A model generated the notes under the pieces. The model saw nothing but the letters and a program-made list of their open reading frames with translations, was not told the origin of the DNA and ran no database searches. DNA of 64,000 nt. It comes from Methanoregula sp. (GTDB lineage: Archaea > Halobacteriota > Methanomicrobia > Methanomicrobiales > Methanospirillaceae). How positions within the stretch are numbered: position 1 is the first letter of the stretch; every line of letters starts with the position of its first letter. Below are positions 2,702-32,726 of this stretch, piece after piece. The translations under genes were made by a program, and so were the position numbers. The DNA lies in contig JAUYTV010000017.1 of assembly GCA_030694985.1 (NCBI GenBank), forward strand, positions 3,747-67,746, in the 5' to 3' direction.

Positions 2702-3850
2702 TCAAAGCACACTCTTTACCCCGGGTATAGCACGGATTAGGTGCGCTAACAAAAACGAGAAGCAGATTGCCAGCGGGAGCACCACAGCAAATTTGGTGAG
2801 CTGGGGAAGGGCAAAGCCTGCCAGTGCAATTGCAAGGAGAATAAGGATGACCGGGTGGATGATATACACGGTATAGGAATCTCCGGCCATTGCCCGGGCA
2901 ACAGGCCCTTGCCTATTGAACCATTGGGAGAATAGCCAGAGCATTCCGGTGATTATCATTACTCCTGCCATCTGTTCCCAGAAAGCATAGAACACGGCCT
3001 GCCATTGAAGCCCTCCGATGAACAGGGCAGGCCCGGACGATGAATTCGTGATCAGGTGAATGAAGACTGGCTGGACTGCGATAAGAAACAGGGCTGCGAT
3101 GGCACAGGTCTTACCGACACGGGAAGGGATATCATCAAACCAGTTGTTTTGCGCCGCGTAAATGCCAATGATAAAGGCTGCGATATACTGCGGGAAGAAC
3201 GGGAGCTGGAATCCGAACAGCCACATGGACCCGATAGGCAGGAAGATCCGGACAACCGCAGTGACAATCCCAAGAAGAAGCCCAAGAGCAACGATAGAAG
3301 CAAAACCCGGAAATGGGTGCGATTTTACTTTGACATGTGGTTCCGTCCGGAACAACCCGGTCCAGAGCAGGTACACAAAGGTTGCCACGAGCAGGAAGAA
3401 GACAAACCACATCGGTCCGAGCCCGGCTCCGGTGAGTGGATTTAAGAAGGTCGCCGGGGGCATCGGAAGTGTTCCCGTACCATTCAGAATGATAAGCAGG
3501 ATAAGTGGGTTGATTAAGAGAACCCAGACAAGGAGCGGGATGCCGAGCCTTACTAAACGGTCACGGGTGAAACGGTCCCTTCCCTTGCGCTGAAGCGACC
3601 CCACAACAAAATACGCTGACACCAGAACAAAGAAACCCATAAAGAATGACTGGTTCAGCGAATCGATCACAAAAAGGATGAACGGTGTTGTGGAACCGTT
3701 GCCAGGGTCAGTGAAGTACCAGGCACCCGGGCCGCCGTAAGTGATCGAGCAGTGCGTTGCGATCACAAGGCAGATCAGGAGGATCCGGATACTATCAATA
3801 TAAAGGAGTCGCGGGCCACTTTTCTTATCAGCTGCTTCTGCGACGGTCAT
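2702..3850 (-). CDS. acyltransferase-3 family membrane protein
   Basis: RLLYIDSIR, FFMGFFVLVSAYF, RLVRLGIP, GPMWF, YTVYIIHP motifs; polytopic; start placed at ATG 3850. Confidence 0.9.
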   Translation of the reverse strand: MTVAEAADKKSGPRLLYIDSIRILLICLVIATHCSITYGGPGAWYFTDPGNGSTTPFILFVIDSLNQSFFMGFFVLVSAYFVVGSLQRKGRDRFTRDRLVRLGIPLLVWVLLINPLILLIILNGTGTLPMPPATFLNPLTGAGLGPMWFVFFLLVATFVYLLWTGLFRTEPHVKVKSHPFPGFASIVALGLLLGIVTAVVRIFLPIGSMWLFGFQLPFFPQYIAAFIIGIYAAQNNWFDDIPSRVGKTCAIAALFLIAVQPVFIHLITNSSSGPALFIGGLQWQAVFYAFWEQMAGVMIITGMLWLFSQWFNRQGPVARAMAGDSYTVYIIHPVILILLAIALAGFALPQLTKFAVVLPLAICFSFLLAHLIRAIPGVKSVL

Positions 3851-21523: not shown

Positions 21524-21806
21524 AGGTAAAAAACGTGAGCAGGGTTCATTTTTTTAAGCCATGTGCCAGGAGACGAACTGATACTGGCCTGTAAGGAATA
21601 TGGGGTTACTGTAGATGCAGAGTCAAAAAAGCACCTTTTCCAGCGAGGCTTTTAAGAAGCACACCCGTTACTGATTATACCCGATTCAGGAGATTTTATC
21701 TATCAGCAGCATCACAATCAAAAAAAATGACGAGCCCGGTAAGACAGCACGGTTTGATATGATGGTGCCAAAAGGTATGTGGCGTATGAACGGCAAGGAT
21801 GCATAA
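21524..21806 (+). pseudogene. decayed HATPase tail of a histidine kinase
   Basis: Manual translation across frameshifts and stops: GDELILACKEYGVTVDAESKKHLFQRGF* ... EILSISSITIKKNDEPGKTARFDMMVPKGMWRMNGKDA*; its TAA overlaps the next ATG. Confidence 0.8.
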
Positions 21807-24052
21807 TGACTGCGACAATTCGCATCCTCTATGTTGATGACGAACCTTCCCTTCTCGATATTGGCAAGCTGTTCCTTGAGAAAGGAGGAGTGCTTACTGT
21901 CGATACGCTCACATCTGCAATAGAGGCACTGGAGCAGTTGAAAACAAAGCGGTATGATGCGATCCTTTCCGATTACCAGATGCCGGAGATGGATGGGATC
22001 ACGTTCCTTAAACAACTCAAAGCATTAGGTGATAAAACTCCGTTTATCATTTTTACCGGAAGGGGCAGGGAAGAGGTAGTCATTGAAGCGCTGAACAGCG
22101 GTGCGGACTTCTATATCCAGAAGGGCGGCGATCCAAAGTCGCAGTTTGCCGAACTCTCGCACAAGATTAAAACAGCAGTCAGCCGCCAAAAGACAGAAAA
22201 ACTGGCAAAGGATACGGATAGACGGCTCAATGATATTATTAATTTCCTCCCGGATGCGACCTTTGCAATAGATACTAAAGGAACCGTGATTGCATGGAAC
22301 AAAGCAATTGAGGAGATGACCGGCGTTCCTGCCCGCGAGATGCTCGGCAAGGGAAATTATGAATACGCCATACCCTTTTATGGTGAGCGTCGTCCTATCC
22401 TGATAAATCTCGTATCCATCCCTGACGAAGAGCTCACACAAGGTAAATATGCAGTCATCAAAAAAGAGGGAGATATCCTGATCGCCGAGACCGAACTTCC
22501 CCGTCCTTTGGGAAGATATTCAGTCCTGCTTGGAAAGGCATCCATTCTCTATAATGATGAAGGGCAGGTTATTGGCGCTATTGAATCCATTAGAGATATC
22601 ACTGACATGAAAATGGCAGAGAAGGCACTCGCTGAGAGCAGGCGTCGACTTGAGGCAATGGCCACCAACATTTTCGGGGTTGTCTACCGATTCTGCGCAA
22701 ACCCTGATGGAACATACGGGTTTGATTATATAGGAGAGCGCAGCCGGCAGATCCTTGGTCTGGAGAATGACCCGGTTTCATTTTTTCAACGGGTTTATGA
22801 GGGTATCGTTCCAGAAGAACGACAACGATTCATCAGATCGGTTCAGCACGCCATCAGCACAAAAACTCTCTGGGAATTTAGCAGCTGGTATGTGAAACCC
22901 TCAGGAAAAAAGATCTGGATCAGTGCTGTATCCAGCCCGGCAATTGAAAATGAGCGGCTCGTTTTTGACGGTGTTATTTTTGACAATACCGAGTGTAAAA
23001 AAGCAGAAGAGTTTATGCAGATGAGCGAATTGAAATATCGTTTGCTTATCGAATCTTCAAGCGATGCGATTTTTTGCGTAGATGAGAATGGAGCGTACCA
23101 ATTTACCAATCTCATATTTGCATCAACCTTTGCTAAAACGCCTGAGTTTTTTATTGGAAAAACCTTCTGGGACATTTACCCAAAAGAGCATGCCGATCTC
23201 CGTCAATTGGCAAACCTCAAAGTGTTTGAAACAGGAGAGGTCCAGACCCTTGAAGTCGAAGTTCCCTTACCTCATACAACATTATATTTTCTCGCTAAAG
23301 CAAATCCGATAAAAGATGAAACAGGCAAAGTAATCTTAAATCTTACCCATGCAACAGACATCACTGACAGAAAGCGGGTGGAACAAGCAATCCGGCAGGC
23401 AAACCAAAAACTCCTCTTACTCTTAAGTATCACCCGGCACGACATCAACAACCAGCTTACGGTGCTGCTGGGATATCAGGAGTTAGTAGCGATAAAGCAG
23501 GTGGATCACCATCTCATTGATTATTGCCAGAAGGTCATAACCGCTGCACAGCGGATTTATGCCATGATCCAGTTCACCAAAGAATACGAGAGTCTTGGAA
23601 TATCAGCACCTGCATGGTATGATACCAGCACACTCATTCAGACTGCGGCAAAGCAAGCTTCGCTGGGAAAAGTCATGGTAAAAAACGATATTCCTTCAGG
23701 ATATGAAATGTTTGCTGACCCGCTAATAATCAAAGTCTGCTACAACCTGATGGAAAATGCTGTGCAATATGGCAAGAAGATCACAACTATCCGGTTCTCT
23801 GTTCTGGAACGTAACGATGAACATCTCATTATATGCGAAGATGATGGGGTGGGGGTTCTTGCAGAAGAAAAAGAAAAGATCTTCGAGCGGGGTTTTGGGA
23901 AGAACACCGGACTTGGTTTAGCCTTGTCCCGCGAGATACTCTCAATCACGGGCATCACCATAAAAGAGACCGGTGAGCCGGGCATAGGAGCCCGGTTTGA
24001 GCTGACCGTGCCTAATGGTATGTGGCGGATTGGGGGAAAGAAAGAAAAATGA
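21806..24052 (+). CDS. hybrid sensor histidine kinase (REC-PAS-PAS-PAS-HisKA-HATPase)
   Basis: ILYVDDE, LSDYQMP; three PAS/PAC segments; SITRHDINNQL; NLMENA, EDDGVG, GFGKNTGLGL. Confidence 0.93.
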   Translation: MTATIRILYVDDEPSLLDIGKLFLEKGGVLTVDTLTSAIEALEQLKTKRYDAILSDYQMPEMDGITFLKQLKALGDKTPFIIFTGRGREEVVIEALNSGADFYIQKGGDPKSQFAELSHKIKTAVSRQKTEKLAKDTDRRLNDIINFLPDATFAIDTKGTVIAWNKAIEEMTGVPAREMLGKGNYEYAIPFYGERRPILINLVSIPDEELTQGKYAVIKKEGDILIAETELPRPLGRYSVLLGKASILYNDEGQVIGAIESIRDITDMKMAEKALAESRRRLEAMATNIFGVVYRFCANPDGTYGFDYIGERSRQILGLENDPVSFFQRVYEGIVPEERQRFIRSVQHAISTKTLWEFSSWYVKPSGKKIWISAVSSPAIENERLVFDGVIFDNTECKKAEEFMQMSELKYRLLIESSSDAIFCVDENGAYQFTNLIFASTFAKTPEFFIGKTFWDIYPKEHADLRQLANLKVFETGEVQTLEVEVPLPHTTLYFLAKANPIKDETGKVILNLTHATDITDRKRVEQAIRQANQKLLLLLSITRHDINNQLTVLLGYQELVAIKQVDHHLIDYCQKVITAAQRIYAMIQFTKEYESLGISAPAWYDTSTLIQTAAKQASLGKVMVKNDIPSGYEMFADPLIIKVCYNLMENAVQYGKKITTIRFSVLERNDEHLIICEDDGVGVLAEEKEKIFERGFGKNTGLGLALSREILSITGITIKETGEPGIGARFELTVPNGMWRIGGKKEK

Positions 24053-25182
24053 CAGGTACAATCAGGGTTCTCTATGTGGATGACGAACCTTCCCTGCTTG
24101 ATATCGGCAAGCTGTTCCTTGAGATGGACGGAACTTTTGCAGTCGATACGTTCACTTCTGTTTCTGAAGCACTCACGCAGCTGAAGATGGAACGATATGA
24201 TGCCATCCTGTCAGATTACCAGATGCCGGAGATGGATGGCATCACGTTTCTTAAACAGATAAGAGCCTCTCAAAATAGAACCCCGTTTATCATCTTCACT
24301 GGCAGAGGGCGTGAAGATGTGGTGATTGAGGCGCTCAACAACGGGGCTGATTTTTACATTCAGAAAGGCGGTGAGCCCAAGAGCCAGTATGCAGAGCTTT
24401 CGAATAAGATTCGTTACGCTGTTTCAAAGAAGCATTCTGAAGAAGCGTTAGGGGAAAGTGAGTTGCTTGAAAAGGAGATGGAGTACCATGAAAAGGAACT
24501 CATGAAATATTACAACCAAACGTTAGATGATGCAAACAAGAAACTTACATTACTCTCCGGAATCACGCGACACGACATCATCAGCCAGCTGACCGCATTG
24601 CAATTATACCTTGAAATTCTGGAAAATAAGCTGCCAGACTCATCTTACCATGAGTATTTTAAAAAGATTGGGATTGCTACAGACCGGATCTATTCTATTG
24701 TTCGGTTCACCCAGGAATACGAAACGATTGGAGTTAATACTCCCGTATGGGTGGATGTCAGTGCAATTGTTGATGCTGCAAAAAAAGAGGGTGTTTCTGC
24801 ACACCTCCAACTCGTAAACGATCTTCCTGCCAACTTCGAAGTTTTCTCTGATGCCCTGATTGCCAATGTCTGTTACAACCTCATAGACAATGCGGTGCGA
24901 TATGGGGGGAAGATCACAATGATCCGGTTCTCTGTTGAAGACGCCGGCGATTACCATCGTATCGTGTGCGAAGATGATGGAAACGGTGTGGTTGCTGAAG
25001 AAAAGGAGAAGATTTTTACCCGGGGTTTTGGCAAGAACACCGGACTTGGGTTAGCACTTTCCCGTGAAATCCTCTTAATCACGGGTATCACGATCAAAGA
25101 GAACGGTGAGCCGGGCAAAGGAGCCCGGTTTGATATCGTGGTACCGGATGGTGCGTGGCGTATAGGGGGGAGGGAAGACTGA
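24049..25182 (+). CDS. hybrid histidine kinase (REC-HisKA-HATPase, no sensor domain)
   Basis: VLYVDDE; GITRHDIISQL; NLIDNA, EDDGNG, GFGKNTGLGL; ATGA overlap with the upstream kinase. Confidence 0.92.
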   Translation: MTGTIRVLYVDDEPSLLDIGKLFLEMDGTFAVDTFTSVSEALTQLKMERYDAILSDYQMPEMDGITFLKQIRASQNRTPFIIFTGRGREDVVIEALNNGADFYIQKGGEPKSQYAELSNKIRYAVSKKHSEEALGESELLEKEMEYHEKELMKYYNQTLDDANKKLTLLSGITRHDIISQLTALQLYLEILENKLPDSSYHEYFKKIGIATDRIYSIVRFTQEYETIGVNTPVWVDVSAIVDAAKKEGVSAHLQLVNDLPANFEVFSDALIANVCYNLIDNAVRYGGKITMIRFSVEDAGDYHRIVCEDDGNGVVAEEKEKIFTRGFGKNTGLGLALSREILLITGITIKENGEPGKGARFDIVVPDGAWRIGGRED

Positions 25183-25781
25183 TTGGCGCAGGAAAGACAA
25201 AAAATTAGAAGAGATGAACACTAGATGCTCCCGATATCGATTGTTTGTTGCGAAACGATGCATACGTTCATAACAGATATTGCAAGTTTAGCAGGAGCAA
25301 TGAAGTTGAAATTCGTAATGCCATCGACAGCAACAAGCTTGCCAATGTTTTTCCTTTAAATCCTGTGCCTCAATGATCGAAGTATTGAATTCCTCGCATT
25401 AATTCAGTGATTTGTTTGAGGGTGAATTAACATTCTCAGACGATACCGGCGAATTTTAAAACACCCTGTTGTCGGGAGGGAAAAGTGCTGTTCATTATCG
25501 GTGCTTTGCATGCGCGACCTCGTTACAGGAAACGACAGAAGAAAATTTTTAAAAATGTTCAAATATTCTGATTAATTCAAATCCGGGGGTATATTGAAGG
25601 ATTGCGCAATTCATAAATTATCAGACAGATCATGCGTTTTTATTTGATTGTGACTTAATTTCAGAACAAAAACGATTGTTTACCCCAATTCTATGCGTGA
25701 AAATGCTATTGTGACCATAATATTTATTAGTTCCGAAATTTAAAAAAATATAACCCATTCCGGTAGGAGGTGGAAAATCAC

Positions 25782-26120
25782 ATGGCAGCAGCAAAGAAAG
25801 CAGCGGCAAAGAAGCCGGAAGTAAAGAAGGCATTAGCAAAGAAACCTGTAGCTAAAAAGGTAGTTGCAAAAAAACCAGTTGCTAAGACGGTAGCAGCTAA
25901 GAAGTCAGTAGCTAAAAAGGTAGTTGCAAAGAAACCCGTAGCAAAGGCAGCAGCAGCTAATAAGCCAGTAGCTAAAAAGGTAGTTGCAAAGAAACCCGTA
26001 GCTAAGACGGTAGCAGCTAAGAAGCCAGTAGCTAAGACGGTAGCAGCTAAGAAACCTGTAGCTAAAAAGGTAGTTGCAAAAAAACCAGTAGCTAAAAAGG
26101 CAGCACCCAAGAAGAAGTAA
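25782..26120 (+). CDS. histone-H1-like Lys/Ala/Val/Pro pentapeptide-repeat basic protein
   Basis: GGAGGTG ribosome-binding site before ATG 25782; 112 aa made almost entirely of KKPVA/KKVVA/KTVAA units. Confidence 0.85.
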   Translation: MAAAKKAAAKKPEVKKALAKKPVAKKVVAKKPVAKTVAAKKSVAKKVVAKKPVAKAAAANKPVAKKVVAKKPVAKTVAAKKPVAKTVAAKKPVAKKVVAKKPVAKKAAPKKK

Positions 26121-26522: not shown

Positions 26523-27077
26523 ATGACTGATAAAAAGTACGAATCCTTAAAGATTGAGAACATTGTTGCATCCGGTGTAATCGCCGAATCCATTGATCTT
26601 GTTGTATTGTCAGAAAAGATTGAGAACTGCGAACTCAATAAAAAACGGTTCCCCGGTGCGGTATATCGTATTCAGGACCCCAAGATTGCGGCCCTGATCT
26701 TTTCGTCAGGCAAGGTAGTGCTTACCGGCATCCGTAACGATAAGGCGTTGGCAGACGGACTTGCAATCATCATAAAATCGTTAATACAGGCAGGTATCAA
26801 ACCCTTAAAAGAGCCAAAAATTGCTGTTACCAATATGGTCTGTTCATACAATCTTGGCACACATATCAATCTCAACAAGATCGTTGTCACGCTCAATGTT
26901 GAAAATATCGAGTACGAACCCGAACAGTTCCCCGGACTGGTATACCGGATAAAAGATCCCAAGATTGTTGTCCTTATTTTTTCATCAGGAAAGATCATAC
27001 TTACGGGAGGCAAGAATCTTGATGACGTCAAAAGGGGTCTTGCTGTCCTCGAACAGAAACTTGAAACCATAATGTAG
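26523..27077 (+). CDS. tbp: TATA-box-binding protein
   Basis: Two TBP repeats: ENIVAS..FPGAVYRIQDPK..LIFSSGKVVLTG and NMVCS..EPEQFPGLVYR..LIFSSGKIILTG. Confidence 0.98.
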   Translation: MTDKKYESLKIENIVASGVIAESIDLVVLSEKIENCELNKKRFPGAVYRIQDPKIAALIFSSGKVVLTGIRNDKALADGLAIIIKSLIQAGIKPLKEPKIAVTNMVCSYNLGTHINLNKIVVTLNVENIEYEPEQFPGLVYRIKDPKIVVLIFSSGKIILTGGKNLDDVKRGLAVLEQKLETIM

Positions 27078-27292
27078 AAGTAAAATATTTTTTTTATTCT
27101 AACTACGATAGACAAGGGAACACTGCCGCAAACCCGAAATGTGAGTATTGCTTTTTTTTACGCTCAATGCCGCTAAGCGACCATAACCCGTATTCATTTA
27201 AAAAAAACCTGTTTTTCAGACATCGTCAAAAAAAATACCCCCATTCAAGGGGTCTCTTGTGAGCAAAAAAAATAGTTATGCCTAAAAATAAA

Positions 27293-28828
27293 CTAACCCC
27301 GTGTGGCAGATTTAGGTAATACCAGCATAAATGCAGTCCCATTCTCTGGATTACTGGAAACCGTAATATCCCCGTTTAACTTTTCTGCCATCTGTTTTGC
27401 AACCGGAAGACTCAGGCCGATAAAGCCGGATTTTTCCAGCAGCTTTGATTCATCGCCTACATAGTATGGCTTGAATACATTTGGTATGATCTCATGTGCA
27501 ATGACTGCACTGCGGTTTCGGATTGCAAAAAAATTATTGATTTTGTCGTCATAATGCGAGATCTCAATTTTTGCAGGGGTTTTGGAATACTGGATGATAT
27601 TATACATCAGGCTCTGGAGGATTAAATAAAAGTATTCACTGTCAGTGATGAGTTTTAATTCATCAGGAATTGTGATATCTACGGCAATATCACTGGAGCA
27701 CCTGATGACAGAGATATAAGAGATGAGCAGTTGTCGCGGGGAAATTTCCCGGTAATTTGGCTTGAACTTTGGCAGCATCTGTTCAGGGCCGTATCCCAGG
27801 CTGCTCAATTTGAGGATATGCTCAATCATCTCCCGCATCAAATCAATATTTTTTGAGCATTTGCCAAGGATTACTTTTGCATCCGCATTCAGGCCATAGG
27901 AATCCGGATCATCAAGAACAAGGTGAAGGTATCCCATGACCGGCTGGAGGGGAGTGCGGAGTTCATGGGCGGCAAGTATGAGAAATTCCCGTTTTCTTAT
28001 CAGTTCGTGTCGGAGATCTTCTTCGATCTTCCGGAGCTCTGTGATGTCAAGAAGTGAATACACCCTTCGCGGAGTCTCTGGGATCATATCGAGGATTACG
28101 TAGACATTTTTTATATTGCCGTCACGGGCTTTGAGCCGGAACTCATAGTGTTGTGGCAGTTTGTCTCCTCTCTTTCTGACCCGTTCATGGAATTCTGTTA
28201 CTACCCCAAGGTCATTTCCCACAACAAAGGATAGCAGGCTGATCACCTCGGCCAGTTCCTCATTTGTGTAGCCGACCATCTTTTCAAATTCTGTGTTTGC
28301 CAGATAGATGGTCAGGTCGTCTTCGACTATGGCCATTGCTGTGCCGGAGTTTTCAAATATTGCCCGGTACAGGATTTCTGATTGTTGCAGGCTTCCTTCA
28401 GTACGCCGCCGGTCTTCATCGATATCCAGCGTTGAAACGATCGCATCCAGAATACGTCTCTCTTTTTCATCAATGGCAACGTACGTGAAACTCTTAACCG
28501 CCTCTTCCTCTGTGTCGTATAATAAGAACAGGCGGTCAAATCCTGCAATATGCACAATCTCTTTTACTGCAGGTTTTAAGCAGGCAAGTTTTAAGTCACC
28601 CTGCCTTTTTTTCACTTCCCTTAAGGCCACGATCAGTATGCGGAGACCGGAGCTGCTGATGTAGTTCAGATTTTTTAAATTGAGAACGATCTGTTGTGTT
28701 CCTGATGCAATCACGGTTTTAAATTCTGCTTCCGCTTCGATGGCAGTATTGGTATCAAGCCTGCCAGACATGCATACCACATCAATGGAATCTTGTTTTT
28801 TCCGGGTTATCTGCAGCACATCGGACAT
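27293..28828 (-). CDS. STAS (anti-anti-sigma-like)-PAS-HisKA-HATPase fusion with degenerate ATP-binding boxes
   Basis: GRLD..LNYISSSGLR (STAS); YRAIFENSG (PAS); AAHELRTPL (H-box); G1 box reads NRSAVI. Confidence 0.88.
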   Translation of the reverse strand: MSDVLQITRKKQDSIDVVCMSGRLDTNTAIEAEAEFKTVIASGTQQIVLNLKNLNYISSSGLRILIVALREVKKRQGDLKLACLKPAVKEIVHIAGFDRLFLLYDTEEEAVKSFTYVAIDEKERRILDAIVSTLDIDEDRRRTEGSLQQSEILYRAIFENSGTAMAIVEDDLTIYLANTEFEKMVGYTNEELAEVISLLSFVVGNDLGVVTEFHERVRKRGDKLPQHYEFRLKARDGNIKNVYVILDMIPETPRRVYSLLDITELRKIEEDLRHELIRKREFLILAAHELRTPLQPVMGYLHLVLDDPDSYGLNADAKVILGKCSKNIDLMREMIEHILKLSSLGYGPEQMLPKFKPNYREISPRQLLISYISVIRCSSDIAVDITIPDELKLITDSEYFYLILQSLMYNIIQYSKTPAKIEISHYDDKINNFFAIRNRSAVIAHEIIPNVFKPYYVGDESKLLEKSGFIGLSLPVAKQMAEKLNGDITVSSNPENGTAFMLVLPKSATRG

Positions 28829-28987
28829 TTACCGGATATTAATAAAGAGGTACTACATTAATTATGGCATTTTTTTCTGCTACGGCAGTATGGTAATAGC
28901 CATGTATAAAAAAATCGCCAAGTCGAGATAGCATCATGGACTAAATAATCCAATCGTAAATCAGTATTCTTTTGCAATGACAACTGC

Positions 28988-29248
28988 TTATTCTTCCTCG
29001 TTCTTCTGATCATAGTGCTCAATGAGTCTGCGCACCTCATCATACGCTTTTTGCTTGTCCTTGACCCCGGTAAAAAGGATACGGACTTCCTCGATATCGT
29101 CTTTTATGTATACTGCTTCATCGTACGCGATCAACAGAATTCTTCCATCAGGGCCAAAGGTGTGCTCTTCATATTCTCCTGTCATATACCGCTCGCGCTG
29201 CTCCTTTGTCGGCGCCGCATATTTGTTTTCGTACCGAAATACTGCCAT
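28988..29248 (-). CDS. hypothetical acidic protein
   Basis: 86-aa ORF with ATG start and normal coding composition. Confidence 0.7.
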   Translation of the reverse strand: MAVFRYENKYAAPTKEQRERYMTGEYEEHTFGPDGRILLIAYDEAVYIKDDIEEVRILFTGVKDKQKAYDEVRRLIEHYDQKNEEE

Positions 29249-29518
29249 AACAACTCTTATTGATTACTACTCTGCTCGGTTCACTAACTGCGTATTCATA
29301 TTAAAATTCATGTTTTTTTTTGGTCCATCAGGCAATTGTAAATATTGATCTGTTTTTGCCATTTTTTTAAATCAACTTCACAAAAAAACACCACTCCATT
29401 TTTAATCCACCTAAAGACCGGTGTTACTCGATACCCGGATCACAAAATTGGGGAGTGAGGTAATGGACATAAGATGATACATGGATTACTCCTTTAGTGC
29501 CTGTCCTGGCATAAAGAT

Positions 29519-29950
29519 TTATGCGCCGGGAAAAGATTGCCCCGCAGACTGTTCCAGATATGGCATGGAGAAGTGAACCTGCTCAATTACAAAACGGCTC
29601 CCTGTGTTTCGCAATACTATTGTTGACCTGCCGCATATTGTCTGCTTCTTTGTTCCCTCAAGAGTAAAAGTAATATTACTCTTTGAAGTTACCCACGCAA
29701 TCCGCCCCTCACCAAAAATTTTCACTCCAGAAAATTTTACCGAAATTGATGTTGCCTGGCTCAAATCGCGTTTGATTTGCCGGGTAAAGTCTTTTTTGTC
29801 CAGGATAACTTCATCAGCTCCGCTGCCATACCCGCTGATCTCTGAAGAGAATAAAGCCAATAATGTTTTTATGTCCTTTTTCTGGTATGCTGTACCGTAA
29901 TTGTGCAGGGTTTCTAAAACTTCTGCCTTCTGATCTTCAGTGAGCTTCAT
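29519..29950 (-). CDS. SnoaL/NTF2-like protein
   Basis: AYQKKDIKTLLALF..GSGADE..GRIAWV..GRSTIVL..IEQVHFS. Confidence 0.85.
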   Translation of the reverse strand: MKLTEDQKAEVLETLHNYGTAYQKKDIKTLLALFSSEISGYGSGADEVILDKKDFTRQIKRDLSQATSISVKFSGVKIFGEGRIAWVTSKSNITFTLEGTKKQTICGRSTIVLRNTGSRFVIEQVHFSMPYLEQSAGQSFPGA

Positions 29951-30066
29951 AGCTATTGGTTGTCAATACCACTCTATTATCTTTTTGATATTTTTTATTG
30001 GAAAAAAGAGAGGATAAAAGAATATTGATACACAATAACGGTCTATTGTGTAACAGGAGCAGGATT

Positions 30067-32082
30067 ATGGGATCGCGGGATGGGTCATTTCATGGAGAGA
30101 TAATAGATTTTTTACCGGATGCTACATTTGTTATCGATATTAAAGGACACGTGATTGCATGGAACCGGGCAATGGAAGAGTTGACCGGGGTTTCTAAAGA
30201 AACCATTTTAGGAAAAGGGGATTACGAGTATTCCCTTCCATTTTATGGCGAGAAAAAACCGATGCTGGCAAATCTCATCTTCATGCCGGAAGCAGAGATT
30301 GAAAAGCGGTATGATACAATTGAGAGGATTGGCGACACTCTTGTTGTAGATATCTTCATTCCAACGTTTAGACCCGGTGGCGTATATTTCTGGGCCAAGG
30401 CAAGCCCGCTCTATGACTCGCAGGGCACCATCATCGGCGCCATAGAAACGATCCGGGATATCACGGACCGGAAACGGGCAGAGCAGGAGATGGAGAGAAA
30501 TCGCCAGAGAATGGCAGAGATCATCAACTTTTTACCGGATGCCACGTTTGTGATCGATATCGAAGGAAAAGTGATTGCATGGAACAGGGCTATGGAAGAA
30601 CTGACCGGAGTATCTGACAAAGCCATGCTGGGAAAAGGGGATTTTGAGTATGCGCTCCCGTTTTATAACGAGAGAAAACCAATGCTGGCAAATCTCATCT
30701 TCATGCCGGAAGCTGAGATTGAAAAGCGGTATGATACAATTGAGAGGATTGGCGACACCCTTGTTGTAGATATTTTCATTCCAAACTTCCGACCCGGGGG
30801 TGTATATTTCTGGGCCAAGGCAAGTCCGCTCTATGATCCCCACGGAAATATCTCCGGAGCAATCGAAACAATAAGGGATATCTCTGACCGGAAACGGGCA
30901 GAGCAGGAGATCACCCGCTCCCGCCAGAGTTTAGAAGAGATCATCAGTTTTTTACCGGATGCCACGTTTGTTATCAACCGTGATGGTGTGGTAATCACCT
31001 GGAACCGGGCAATGGAAGAACTAACAGGCGTGTCTGCAAAATCCATTGTAGGAAAAGGAGATTACGAGTATGCCTTACCCTTCTACGGTGAGAAAAAACC
31101 GATGCTGGCAAATCTAATCCTTATGCCAGAAGCTGAGGTGGAGAGCCGGTATACACATGTAAAGCGTGAAGGAGATACGCTGGTCGTAGACACATTCATT
31201 CCAAAACTTGGAGTATCGGGAAAGTATTTCTGGGCCAAGGCAAGCCCACTTTATGATCCTCATGGAAATATCACAGGGTCCATAGAAACGGTAAGGGATA
31301 TTACTGAGCGCCGTGAGATGGAAGGGCGCCTTGCCCGTTCAAAAGCAGAGCTCCAGATAGCAGCAGAGATCCAGCAGAGTTTTCTCCCCGAAATTATTCC
31401 CCAAATCACCGGGTTTGATATTGCGGCAAGAAGTGTGATGGCAAAAGAGGTGGGTGGTGATTTTTTTGATGTGATCCCGTTTGAGATCATACCGCTTGAG
31501 CAAGGAACGCTTGGGATCCTGATAGCCGATGTTTCCGGAAAAGGAGTGCCTGCTGCGCTGTTCATGGCATTATCCCGGATTGTTGTACGGGTAAACGCAC
31601 TCTGGCATCGCGACCCGGCCCGGGCAATTTTCGATGCGAACAATATCATTGCGCAGGATTCCAAGGCCGGCATGTTTGTCACCCTCTTTTATGGAACTCT
31701 TTCAGAAAAGAACCGGACCCTGACGTATGTGAATGCAGGTCATAACCCTCCTGTAATATTCAGAAATAAAGATGGATCCTTAGAAGAACTCCTGCCTACA
31801 GGAATTGTGCTGGGTGCAGTTGAGCACCGTGAATATTTTTCCCGGACTATTGATATCGGGCCGGATGATGTCATTGTTATGTACACTGACGGTATTACAG
31901 AATCGATCAATGCCGGGGTAGAGATGTTTGGAGAAGAGAGACTGTATTCTATCATAAGGCAGAATGCCCGGTTGCCTGCTCGTGAAATCCTTGCAAAGAT
32001 ATTAGCTAGTGTACAGCAGTTCACTGGTGAAATGCCCCAGTTTGATGACATCACCCTGATGGTGATAAAAGGAATCAGATGA
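30067..32082 (+). CDS. PAS-PAS-PAS-SpoIIE/RsbU-type PP2C serine phosphatase
   Basis: AAEIQQSFLP, VGGDFFD, IADVSGKGVPAALFM, YVNAGHNP, YTDGITE and DDITL all intact. Confidence 0.95.
   Translation: MGSRDGSFHGEIIDFLPDATFVIDIKGHVIAWNRAMEELTGVSKETILGKGDYEYSLPFYGEKKPMLANLIFMPEAEIEKRYDTIERIGDTLVVDIFIPTFRPGGVYFWAKASPLYDSQGTIIGAIETIRDITDRKRAEQEMERNRQRMAEIINFLPDATFVIDIEGKVIAWNRAMEELTGVSDKAMLGKGDFEYALPFYNERKPMLANLIFMPEAEIEKRYDTIERIGDTLVVDIFIPNFRPGGVYFWAKASPLYDPHGNISGAIETIRDISDRKRAEQEITRSRQSLEEIISFLPDATFVINRDGVVITWNRAMEELTGVSAKSIVGKGDYEYALPFYGEKKPMLANLILMPEAEVESRYTHVKREGDTLVVDTFIPKLGVSGKYFWAKASPLYDPHGNITGSIETVRDITERREMEGRLARSKAELQIAAEIQQSFLPEIIPQITGFDIAARSVMAKEVGGDFFDVIPFEIIPLEQGTLGILIADVSGKGVPAALFMALSRIVVRVNALWHRDPARAIFDANNIIAQDSKAGMFVTLFYGTLSEKNRTLTYVNAGHNPPVIFRNKDGSLEELLPTGIVLGAVEHREYFSRTIDIGPDDVIVMYTDGITESINAGVEMFGEERLYSIIRQNARLPAREILAKILASVQQFTGEMPQFDDITLMVIKGIR
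30097..31356 (+). repeat. three tandem 420-bp PAS-PAC coding repeats
   Basis: TTACCGGAT ends at 30120, 30540 and 30960; units 1 and 2 share long identical stretches. Confidence 0.9.
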
Positions 32083-32414
32083 ATGAGAGATATTTTCGGT
32101 TGTATCTGTTCAGAGTACAAAACCGGTGCATGTCATACGAAAACAGGATATCTTTTCGAACATTTGATAAGTCCGGGAAATGTCAGGATTACCCGATACG
32201 CAGAATCAAAAGAACTGTCATCTATCCAAGGACTTTAATAAATTTCACTTCCAACATTAAGATACTAGAAATATCTTAGTGTCACAATCTTCACAAACAA
32301 AAAAAGCCAAAAATTCTCTTATTCAGATGTAGGGACAAATGCCTGGCACTTCTGCTTATAGAGATTTTTAAAGAGTATTTGAGAAGAATGCGGAGTTCTG
32401 AAAAGGACACAGAT

Positions 32415-32726
32415 ATGAGAACCTCTCTTACCAAGGCTGGGTTTACGATTCGGGTGACTGATGAGAGATGGATTCATATTACCGAGTCACATGATTATAT
32501 GGCTGGTTATCTTGACCATGTGATTGAGACCGTTGAAGATCCGGATTGGCTGGTAAAAGGATGGACTGACGAAGTTATTGCAATAAAACAATATCCTTTC
32601 AGCATATCAGAGAAAAAAAATCTGTTTGTTGTGTACAAAGATCTGCCAGAAGGTTTTGTGATAACAGCATTTATGACTTCAAAACATGAAAAGATACTGA
32701 AGAGAGGGATCATATGGGAGAAATAA
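32415..32726 (+). CDS. putative RelE/barnase-like (PBECR-type) toxin
   Basis: IRVTDERWIHITESH..ETVEDPD..LFVVY..GFVITAF; overlaps a DUF2283-like gene. Confidence 0.6.
   Translation: MRTSLTKAGFTIRVTDERWIHITESHDYMAGYLDHVIETVEDPDWLVKGWTDEVIAIKQYPFSISEKKNLFVVYKDLPEGFVITAFMTSKHEKILKRGIIWEK

Follow-up and report, generated by a model that had tools for sequence, protein, structure and literature searches.

Genes at the Locus

The 64,000-nucleotide stretch of DNA analyzed here (the window) covers positions 3747–67746 of contig JAUYTV010000017.1 (C55:3747-67746) in a Methanoregula genome of 2.49 Mb that is 96% complete (labelled G000) and whose close relatives are all Methanoregula metagenome-assembled genomes of the order Methanomicrobiales. 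This report deals with two of its genes, one encoding a STAS domain fused to PAS, DHp and degenerate catalytic (CA) domains, called the STAS-pseudokinase in the following, and one encoding a PP2C phosphatase of the SpoIIE/RsbU type with three PAS domains (PAS-PP2C). Genes of the window were called by Pfam profile search and the whole genome was scanned by a six-frame hidden Markov model (HMM) search. The two genes are:

27293-28828, minus strand: STAS-PAS-DHp-CA protein (STAS-pseudokinase), 511 amino acids (Pfam STAS, PAS, HisKA, and HATPase_c)
29998-32082, plus strand: 3xPAS-PP2C (SpoIIE/RsbU-type) sensor phosphatase, 694 amino acids when read from TTG at 29998 (Pfam)

A first-pass annotation made from the DNA letters had described both genes as a divergent pair. 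Their divergent orientation holds, yet they are not directly adjacent, as two small minus-strand genes, hyp86 and a SnoaL_3 gene, lie between them.

The STAS-Pseudokinase Carries a Degenerate Kinase Module

The features of the STAS-pseudokinase gene, given from the N-terminus of the encoded protein onward, are:

28493-28828, minus strand: STAS domain, residues 1-112, SpoIIAA/RsbV type (Pfam PF01740, 69 bits, residues 7-110)
28643-28663, minus strand: YISSSGL motif, residues 56-62
28652-28654, minus strand: codon of Ser59, the predicted phospho-acceptor (alignment to SpoIIAA-type structures)
28352-28468, minus strand: long linker helix from STAS to PAS, 39 residues, residues 121-159 (AlphaFold2 secondary structure)
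28046-28351, minus strand: PAS domain, residues 160-261 (Pfam PAS_3, PAS, and PAS_8, and AlphaFold2 fold)
27800-28042, minus strand: DHp (HisKA) domain (Pfam HisKA, 40 bits)
27947-27967, minus strand: H-box HELRTPL, with the His288 codon at 27965-27967
27314-27754, minus strand: degenerate CA domain (Pfam HATPase_c, 46 bits)
27584-27610, minus strand: N-box LMYNIIQYS
27500-27523, minus strand: G1 remnant IRNRSAVI, which aligns opposite IKDTGTGI of solved kinases
27407-27430, minus strand: G2-like SGFIGLSL

Each domain of the fusion that had been noticed at first pass, namely STAS followed by PAS, HisKA, and HATPase, was confirmed by Pfam, and the YISSSGL motif is present as described. The notion that the fused module is a competent kinase was not borne out, as 41/41 family members have lost the G1 box and differ in whether they keep the N-box Asn. 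The underlying motif comparison set the 41 members of the STAS-PAS-kinase family, 32 of them full-length, against the 60 nearest PAS kinases that lack a STAS domain. While the DxGxG signature of the G1 box is found in 60/60 of these non-STAS kinases, in the form DNGxGI, it is present in 0/41 family members, and the window protein shows N-R-S-A-V instead. Resolved by residue, the Asp of the G1 box is kept in 1/32, the first Gly in 2/32, and the second Gly in 0/32 proteins. The Mg-binding Asn of the N-box is kept in 57/57 outgroup proteins compared with 21/32 full-length family members, in which it is otherwise replaced by T, A, S, or Y; the window protein is among those that have it. Among the features by which a histidine kinase is recognized, the family thus shows the H-box His and falls short on the N-box Asn and on the DxGxG of the G1 box. 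Judged by these motifs, the fused kinase is catalytically degenerate and its ATP site is lost family-wide.

The residues around the phosphorylatable His are well preserved. His288 and Glu289 are invariant in 32/32 full-length members, position 292 is T or N, and residues 289-292 match the HisKA phosphatase motif E-x-x-T/N. The mean pairwise identity is 0.73 in the DHp domain, the best conserved one, 0.72 in the lid, 0.63 in the degenerate CA domain, and 0.62 in the STAS domain. Since the CA domain is conserved like STAS, it is being maintained and not decaying, and the family-wide loss of the ATP site together with the retention of the His site makes this protein a clean natural pseudo-histidine kinase under purifying selection. 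A DHp bundle combined with a CA-like domain that does not bind ATP, the His site being kept, is known from ChpT of Caulobacter, Spo0B of Bacillus, and the pseudo-histidine kinases DivL and RetS. None of these proteins is known to have a STAS input. The Methanoregula protein is like them in its dead CA domain and its kept His motif, and its participation in phosphotransfer is hypothetical.

The solved structures closest to the STAS domain are 4hyl, TM1442 (1sbo), and SpoIIAA (1auz/1th8), and the AlphaFold2 model reaches a predicted local distance difference test (pLDDT) score of ~85 across residues 1-110. Ser58, Ser59, and Ser60 are invariant in 32/32 full-length family members, so that the sequence S58-S59-S60-G-L agrees with the D/S-S-x-G-L pattern of the type. 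When 1.8 billion representatives were searched with phmmer, the relatives nearest to the domain among the best 150 matches were single-domain STAS proteins, 110-115 amino acids long and 40-48% identical. Based on these similarities, the STAS domain of the fused protein is classified as the anti-sigma-antagonist (SpoIIAA/RsbV) type and is predicted to be phosphorylated. An assignment to the stressosome (RsbR/RsbS/RsbT) does not fit, as the genome has a single HATPase_c_2 gene, the STAS domain is N-terminal, and no such operon occurs in the loci examined. The region connecting STAS and PAS (residues 113-159), which includes the linker helix, has a family identity of 0.68. The AlphaFold2 model of the whole 511-residue protein shows confident domains with a mean pLDDT of 79.

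The PAS-PP2C Phosphatase

The features of the phosphatase gene are:

30097-30477, plus strand: PAS1 (Pfam)
30508-30882, plus strand: PAS2 (Pfam)
30928-31317, plus strand: PAS3 (Pfam)
30109-31301, plus strand: tandem array of PAS-coding repeats (Tandem Repeats Finder)
31360-32082, plus strand: PP2C (SpoIIE/RsbU-type) catalytic domain (Pfam PF07228)
31453-31470, plus strand: metal-binding motif GGDFFD
31525-31545, plus strand: metal-binding motif ADVSGKG
31882-31902, plus strand: metal-binding motif YTDGITE
32041-32061, plus strand: metal-binding motif FDDITLM

The earlier description of a triple-PAS phosphatase with SpoIIE/RsbU motifs that starts at ATG 30067 agrees with our results in all parts. 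The SpoIIE profile matches with 168 bits (PF07228; 167.9 bits vs. a cut-off of 25, profile positions 2-190/192), all four metal-binding motifs are present, and 30067 is the first ATG of the gene, from which the product has 671 amino acids. Four PDB entries match the catalytic domain by sequence. The most similar solved structure is SiaA (6k4e), whose alignment covers all four PP2C motifs; RssB (3es2) covers the first three, and Rv1364c (3ke6) also matches. By profile and motifs the phosphatase belongs to the SpoIIE/RsbU subfamily of the PPM/PP2C phosphatases, and activity on a phosphoserine STAS protein is predicted. The PAS array has a period of 420 nucleotides with 2.8 copies that are 78-80% identical, and the number of PAS copies varies in relatives, where products of 355, 694, and 810 amino acids and open frames of up to 1000 amino acids are found. 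This suggests that the sensor modules are still undergoing expansion and contraction.

Distribution and Linkage of the Two Genes

The STAS-PAS-kinase architecture is represented by ~40 protein clusters with 54-99% identity. Those that are named all come from Methanoregula or Methanomicrobiales, nearly all from Methanoregula, and the next matches beyond the family are ordinary PAS kinases with ~33% identity. To look for this architecture outside the family, the STAS region was used in a word-based search, which returned members of this family only. Likewise, no other kinase with an N-terminal STAS domain was among the best 150 matches of the exhaustive phmmer search mentioned above, a result that leaves room for bacterial fusions with a more distant STAS domain. 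The STAS-pseudokinase is present in 21/108 Methanoregula genomes, and a family-level sample contains it in 4/81 genomes, one of them from another genus. In a complete Methanoregula genome the orthologue (G242:C1:2305261-2306781) has an in-frame TAA codon and the PAS-PP2C orthologue is absent, which may represent gene decay after loss of the partner.

Orthologues of the PAS-PP2C phosphatase were defined by at least 74% identity in the catalytic domain, paralogues being clearly apart at 68% or less, and occur in 32/108 Methanoregula genomes. Across these 108 genomes 14 have both genes, 7 only the pseudokinase, 18 only the phosphatase, and 69 neither, corresponding to an odds ratio of 7.7 (p = 9.5e-5, Fisher test, not corrected for phylogeny). 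The two genes lie within 8 kb of each other in 10 of the 11 genomes in which they share a contig, and this holds down to 61% protein identity. Three layouts can be told apart: the divergent one of the window, with a distance of ~2.1-2.5 kb and hyp86, sometimes also SnoaL_3, in between; a co-directional one of 3.4-3.9 kb with an sCache_2 gene and hyp86 in between; and one case with a distance of 7.3 kb. At loci without the phosphatase gene no conserved neighbour of the pseudokinase was found. The linkage is recurrent and not obligatory.

A Genome-Wide Partner-Switching Network

In agreement with the first-pass annotation, which had seen no RsbW-type kinase in the window, the six-frame HMM search found no HATPase_c_2 domain anywhere on contig C55. 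The search of the whole genome for HATPase_c_2 Ser kinases returned one clear gene (PF13581), an RsbW-like Ser kinase of 138 amino acids (C15:11126-11479, 96 bits), so that the network is not kinase-less. At the core locus on C15 (L019 4795-9088) the kinase gene is flanked by STAS genes. The locus encodes a fusion of 435 amino acids, consisting of STAS and a domain of ~325 amino acids without family assignment, and a single-domain STAS protein of 110 amino acids (STAS110) whose gene is overlapped by that of a metallo-beta-lactamase (MBL)-fold protein of 592 amino acids (MBL592). In total the genome encodes seven STAS proteins, four SpoIIE-type PP2C phosphatases, and one RsbW-like kinase. The sensors of the four phosphatases all differ, comprising 3xPAS in the cytoplasmic phosphatase of the window, 5TMR-LYT on C16, dCache-HAMP on C33, and TM-HAMP on C39. 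The genome thus encodes a complete multi-input partner-switching network with STAS proteins, a GHKL Ser kinase, and PP2C phosphatases.

Within the order, PF07228 occurs in 91/121 Methanomicrobiales genomes and in 25/30 genera. The RsbW-like kinase is found in 84/108 Methanoregula genomes and in 21/21 of those with the STAS-pseudokinase. The order of STAS110 followed by MBL592 beside the RsbW kinase is common to the genome of the window and to another one, G181 (L046). In G181 the RsbW kinase, the 5TMR-LYT PP2C, STAS110, and MBL592 are the immediate neighbours of the PAS-PP2C orthologue. This arrangement places the PAS-PP2C phosphatase in one network with the RsbW kinase, and it suggests that the phosphatase acts on at least two STAS proteins.

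Sigma70_r2 was not found anywhere in the genome, while 10/10 bacterial controls matched; neither a sigma factor nor another identified kinase-held target is among the parts of the network. As the organism has no sigma factor, which the first-pass annotation had taken for granted, the output must be a non-sigma target, and the general claim of a partner-switching chemistry with a non-sigma output is supported. A scan for sigma-70 promoters, which have no meaning in an archaeon, gave fewer matches than in shuffled sequence and was discarded.

Two further observations concern this network. On C39 (L020 378-3734) the gene of the membrane HAMP-PP2C (655 amino acids) is immediately followed, on its own strand, by that of a second fusion of STAS with an unassigned domain (441 amino acids), which is another case of a phosphatase beside a STAS-fused protein in this genome. 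The C-terminal half of MBL592 has no family assignment, and the protein is a candidate target of the RsbW-like kinase; its C-terminal tail received no assignment by Pfam or BLAST and showed no similarity to the degenerate CA domain (BLASTP, Pfam).

Proposed Mechanism and Alternative Explanations

How the two genes of the window might work together can be outlined as follows. The unlinked RsbW-like kinase would phosphorylate Ser59 of the fused STAS domain, and the PAS-PP2C phosphatase would remove this phosphate when its PAS array senses a signal in the cytoplasm, probably acting on other STAS proteins as well. The phospho-state of STAS would then be passed along the linker helix to the DHp module. 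Since autophosphorylation would be impossible, the DHp module would have to act on a REC partner or on an active kinase: it might serve as phosphatase or as ChpT/Spo0B-like His phosphotransferase toward a response regulator or REC domain, or as heterodimer partner of an active kinase. Accordingly, the switch would act on His-Asp signalling and not on a sigma factor. The idea that STAS gates the module fused to it had been put forward at first pass; the 39-residue helix between STAS and PAS fits this part of it, and the module to be gated is by its motifs no competent kinase. We favour, at about even confidence, the view that the locus is an accessory, lineage-specific branch of the Methanomicrobiales partner-switching network, found mainly in Methanoregula, in which the STAS phospho-state gates a kinase-dead DHp module. 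A narrower version of this view is doubtful, according to which the protein is a hub for ChpT/Spo0B-like phosphotransfer or for phosphatase activity that is gated by Ser phosphorylation and wires the partner switch into archaeal His-Asp phosphorelays. If true, an output of the 'anti-sigma' modules in sigma-less archaea would be identified for the first time, and the hub would be a new coupling of Ser/Thr signalling to two-component signalling.

Several findings weigh against gating of the DHp module by STAS. The full-length AlphaFold2 model gave no reliable inter-domain geometry (predicted template modelling score of 0.39) and is uninformative on docking of STAS to the degenerate CA domain. 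The replacement of the G1 Asp by Asn is no strict proof that nucleotide binding is lost. The two genes lie 63 kb apart in G276 and on different contigs in G197; the pseudokinase is found without a PAS-PP2C orthologue in G238, G239, G250, and G242, the last with the internal stop. Conversely, the 18 genomes with the phosphatase orthologue and without the pseudokinase include G224, which otherwise has window-like synteny. Inside a single genus, part of the conserved proximity may stem from inherited synteny, and the co-occurrence statistics carry the limit of the phylogenetically uncorrected test.

Among the alternatives, it is improbable, while deserving serious attention, that the fused protein is a decoy. 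In this case its unphosphorylated STAS domain would bind and sequester the RsbW-like kinase, PAS, DHp, and the degenerate CA domain would be a scaffold for sensing and dimerization, and the real output would be a protein held by RsbW, e.g., the MBL-fold protein. This explanation is consistent with a STAS domain of the canonical SpoIIAA/RsbV type that is 40-48% identical to single-domain antagonists, with many STAS proteins competing for a single RsbW-like kinase, with the conserved STAS110-MBL592 arrangement beside RsbW in G000 and G181, and with the dead catalytic domain. It is difficult to reconcile with an invariant H-box (His288, Glu289, Thr/Asn292), a DHp domain that is the best conserved of all, and a CA domain conserved on par with STAS, all of which is unlike a mere scaffold.

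We also think it unlikely that both proteins are uncoupled, i.e., that the PAS-PP2C phosphatase serves the core single-domain STAS proteins, that the fused STAS is a non-phosphorylated input for interaction or ligand binding, and that proximity is synteny inherited within the genus. The 18 genomes with the phosphatase alone, the 4-7 with the pseudokinase alone, the position of the G181 phosphatase among core kinase and STAS genes, and the fact that hyp86 and the sCache_2 gene share the neighbourhood without an evident role all speak for this explanation. Against it, the proximity of both genes has outlived at least two rearrangements that altered their relative orientation, they co-occur more often than expected (odds ratio 7.7), and the phospho-acceptor serine motif is invariant.

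There is little to recommend a third explanation, in which autokinase activity persists in the fused module by way of an unconventional nucleotide pocket and STAS would therefore gate a real histidine kinase. The N-box Asn in the window protein and in 21/32 members, the retention of G2-like and F-box residues, and the conserved lid would agree with it. However, essentially no member keeps the Asp or either Gly of the G1 box, a third have another residue in place of the N-box Asn, and the nearest relatives (57-60 proteins) all keep both motifs.

Relation to Known Systems

Homologues of SpoIIAA, SpoIIAB, and SpoIIE in Methanomicrobiales have been reported before, together with the remark that sigma factors are missing from archaea (Anderson et al., 2009, PLoS One, PMC2686161). 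The puzzle of a partner-switching module in a sigma-less archaeon, which the first-pass annotation had pointed out, was therefore already published in 2009, for the same order and with the same three protein types. The system covered there is a compact core of three genes, and the paper mentions neither the STAS-PAS-DHp-CA fusion with its dead ATP site nor the linkage of this fusion to a PAS-array PP2C. A census of archaeal two-component systems from 2018 has no occurrence of 'STAS'. The fusion of STAS to a pseudokinase and its pairing with a PAS-array PP2C, being absent from both publications, thus appear to be undescribed.

The closest experimental precedent is found in Anabaena PCC 7120, where the STAS-glycosyltransferase All4160 is controlled by the REC-PP2C protein HenR and by unlinked RsbW-like kinases (Alr3423) (PMC13555669). 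Here too, STAS is fused to a non-sigma output and works with a PP2C phosphatase and unlinked kinases. However, the output in Anabaena is a glycosyltransferase in a bacterium, while that in Methanoregula would be a kinase-dead DHp-CA module in an archaeon.

The Bacillus subtilis switches RsbU/RsbP-RsbV-RsbW-sigmaB and SpoIIE-SpoIIAA-SpoIIAB-sigmaF have in common with the Methanoregula system a sensor PP2C, a STAS protein with the serine of the D/S-S-x-G-L motif, and a GHKL Ser kinase. They differ in that Methanoregula has no sigma factor, its kinase is unlinked, STAS is fused to a two-component transmitter, and a single kinase serves four phosphatases and seven STAS proteins. The same switch logic with a non-sigma target is used by SiaABCD and HsbR/HsbA of Pseudomonas and by SypE/SypA of Vibrio fischeri, but their switch proteins are separate and small, and the targets are diguanylate cyclases, FlgM, and biofilm functions. 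In Rv1364c of Mycobacterium tuberculosis (PAS-PP2C-RsbW-STAS in one chain) the same chemistry of a PAS-sensor PP2C and STAS is found. All its parts are fused and it regulates sigmaF, whereas Methanoregula has them as separate proteins, with a transmitter attached to STAS.

The target of the anti-sigma-type modules of Methanomicrobiales has been a question since 2009, and no partner would have to be guessed where the output is part of the STAS protein itself. The DHp module with its degenerate CA domain is a concrete candidate endpoint and suggests that Ser-phosphorylation switches communicate with His-Asp signalling. The scope is narrow, with the fusion known from 21/108 Methanoregula genomes and, beyond this genus, from one further genome of the family. 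As the general phenomenon has been published, the advance would be more than incremental only if the phosphotransfer model holds.

Neighbouring Genes

The smaller genes next to the STAS-pseudokinase and the phosphatase are:

25770-26120: HC2-like gene, 116 amino acids
26523-27077, plus strand: tbp (Pfam TBP, 177 bits)
27253-27237, minus strand: terminator-like hairpin and T-run between the ends of the tbp and pseudokinase genes
28988-29248, minus strand: hyp86, 86 amino acids, no Pfam family, between the pseudokinase and phosphatase genes
29519-29950, minus strand: SnoaL_3/DUF4440 protein, 143 amino acids (Pfam match)

The convergent tbp neighbour named at first pass is confirmed. Signalling from the module to the TBP encoded alongside, or to chromatin via the neighbouring HC2-like protein, is scarcely credible, as the window and L023/G076 are the only loci with an adjacent tbp, the tbp gene is one of three paralogues, and the genes are convergent with the terminator-like element between them. 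A link of this kind, which had been suggested from proximity, fails the conservation test set beforehand: the window and L023/G076 are 94% identical, and tbp was not found in the flanks of ten other orthologous loci (2.5-8 kb on the tbp side; 8 kb on both sides in L031-L033). The other two tbp paralogues lie at C31:3431-3982 (84% identical to the window copy) and C11:13864-14412 (52%). Both tbp and the HC2-like gene were rejected as partners, since the neighbourhood is not conserved and three tbp paralogues exist; these neighbours are coincidental and tbp is outside the module. The HC2-like protein is rich in Lys and Ala with AKKPVAKK-type repeats and matches Pfam HC2 with 62 bits. This match may be compositional, and a mirror open reading frame (ORF) lies on the opposite strand.

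The hyp86 family comprises proteins of 86-95 amino acids with 24 invariant residues across 32 aligned homologues. Its homologues form 368 clusters, of which those named belong to Methanoregula or Methanomicrobiales. It is better conserved than the flanking genes (80% identity where the pseudokinase has 61-64%), and it is found in unrelated neighbourhoods at 67-77% identity. The AlphaFold2 model of hyp86 (pLDDT 80) consists of a beta-sheet and a long C-terminal helix, and no PDB fold matched it at E < 0.001. With 368 clusters and unrelated contexts at this level of identity, hyp86 was rejected as a module component and is regarded as a bystander. SnoaL_3 was rejected as well, as it is absent from the syntenic loci L027, L029, and L031-L033.

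Just downstream of the phosphatase gene, an ORF of 115 amino acids (32379-32726) has a sub-threshold match to PBECR2 (23.8 bits vs. a cut-off of 27.1), a Barnase/EndoU/RelE-like nuclease family. It may be a toxin-like gene, and it is absent from the syntenic loci of relatives. On the other side of the locus, positions 21779-25182 encode two REC-headed histidine kinases, a REC-PAS-kinase of 757 amino acids and a REC-kinase of 386 amino acids. Their N-terminal REC domains are plausible partners for the kinase-dead DHp protein, although no linkage was found; the two kinase genes overlap by 31 nucleotides and are probably co-transcribed.

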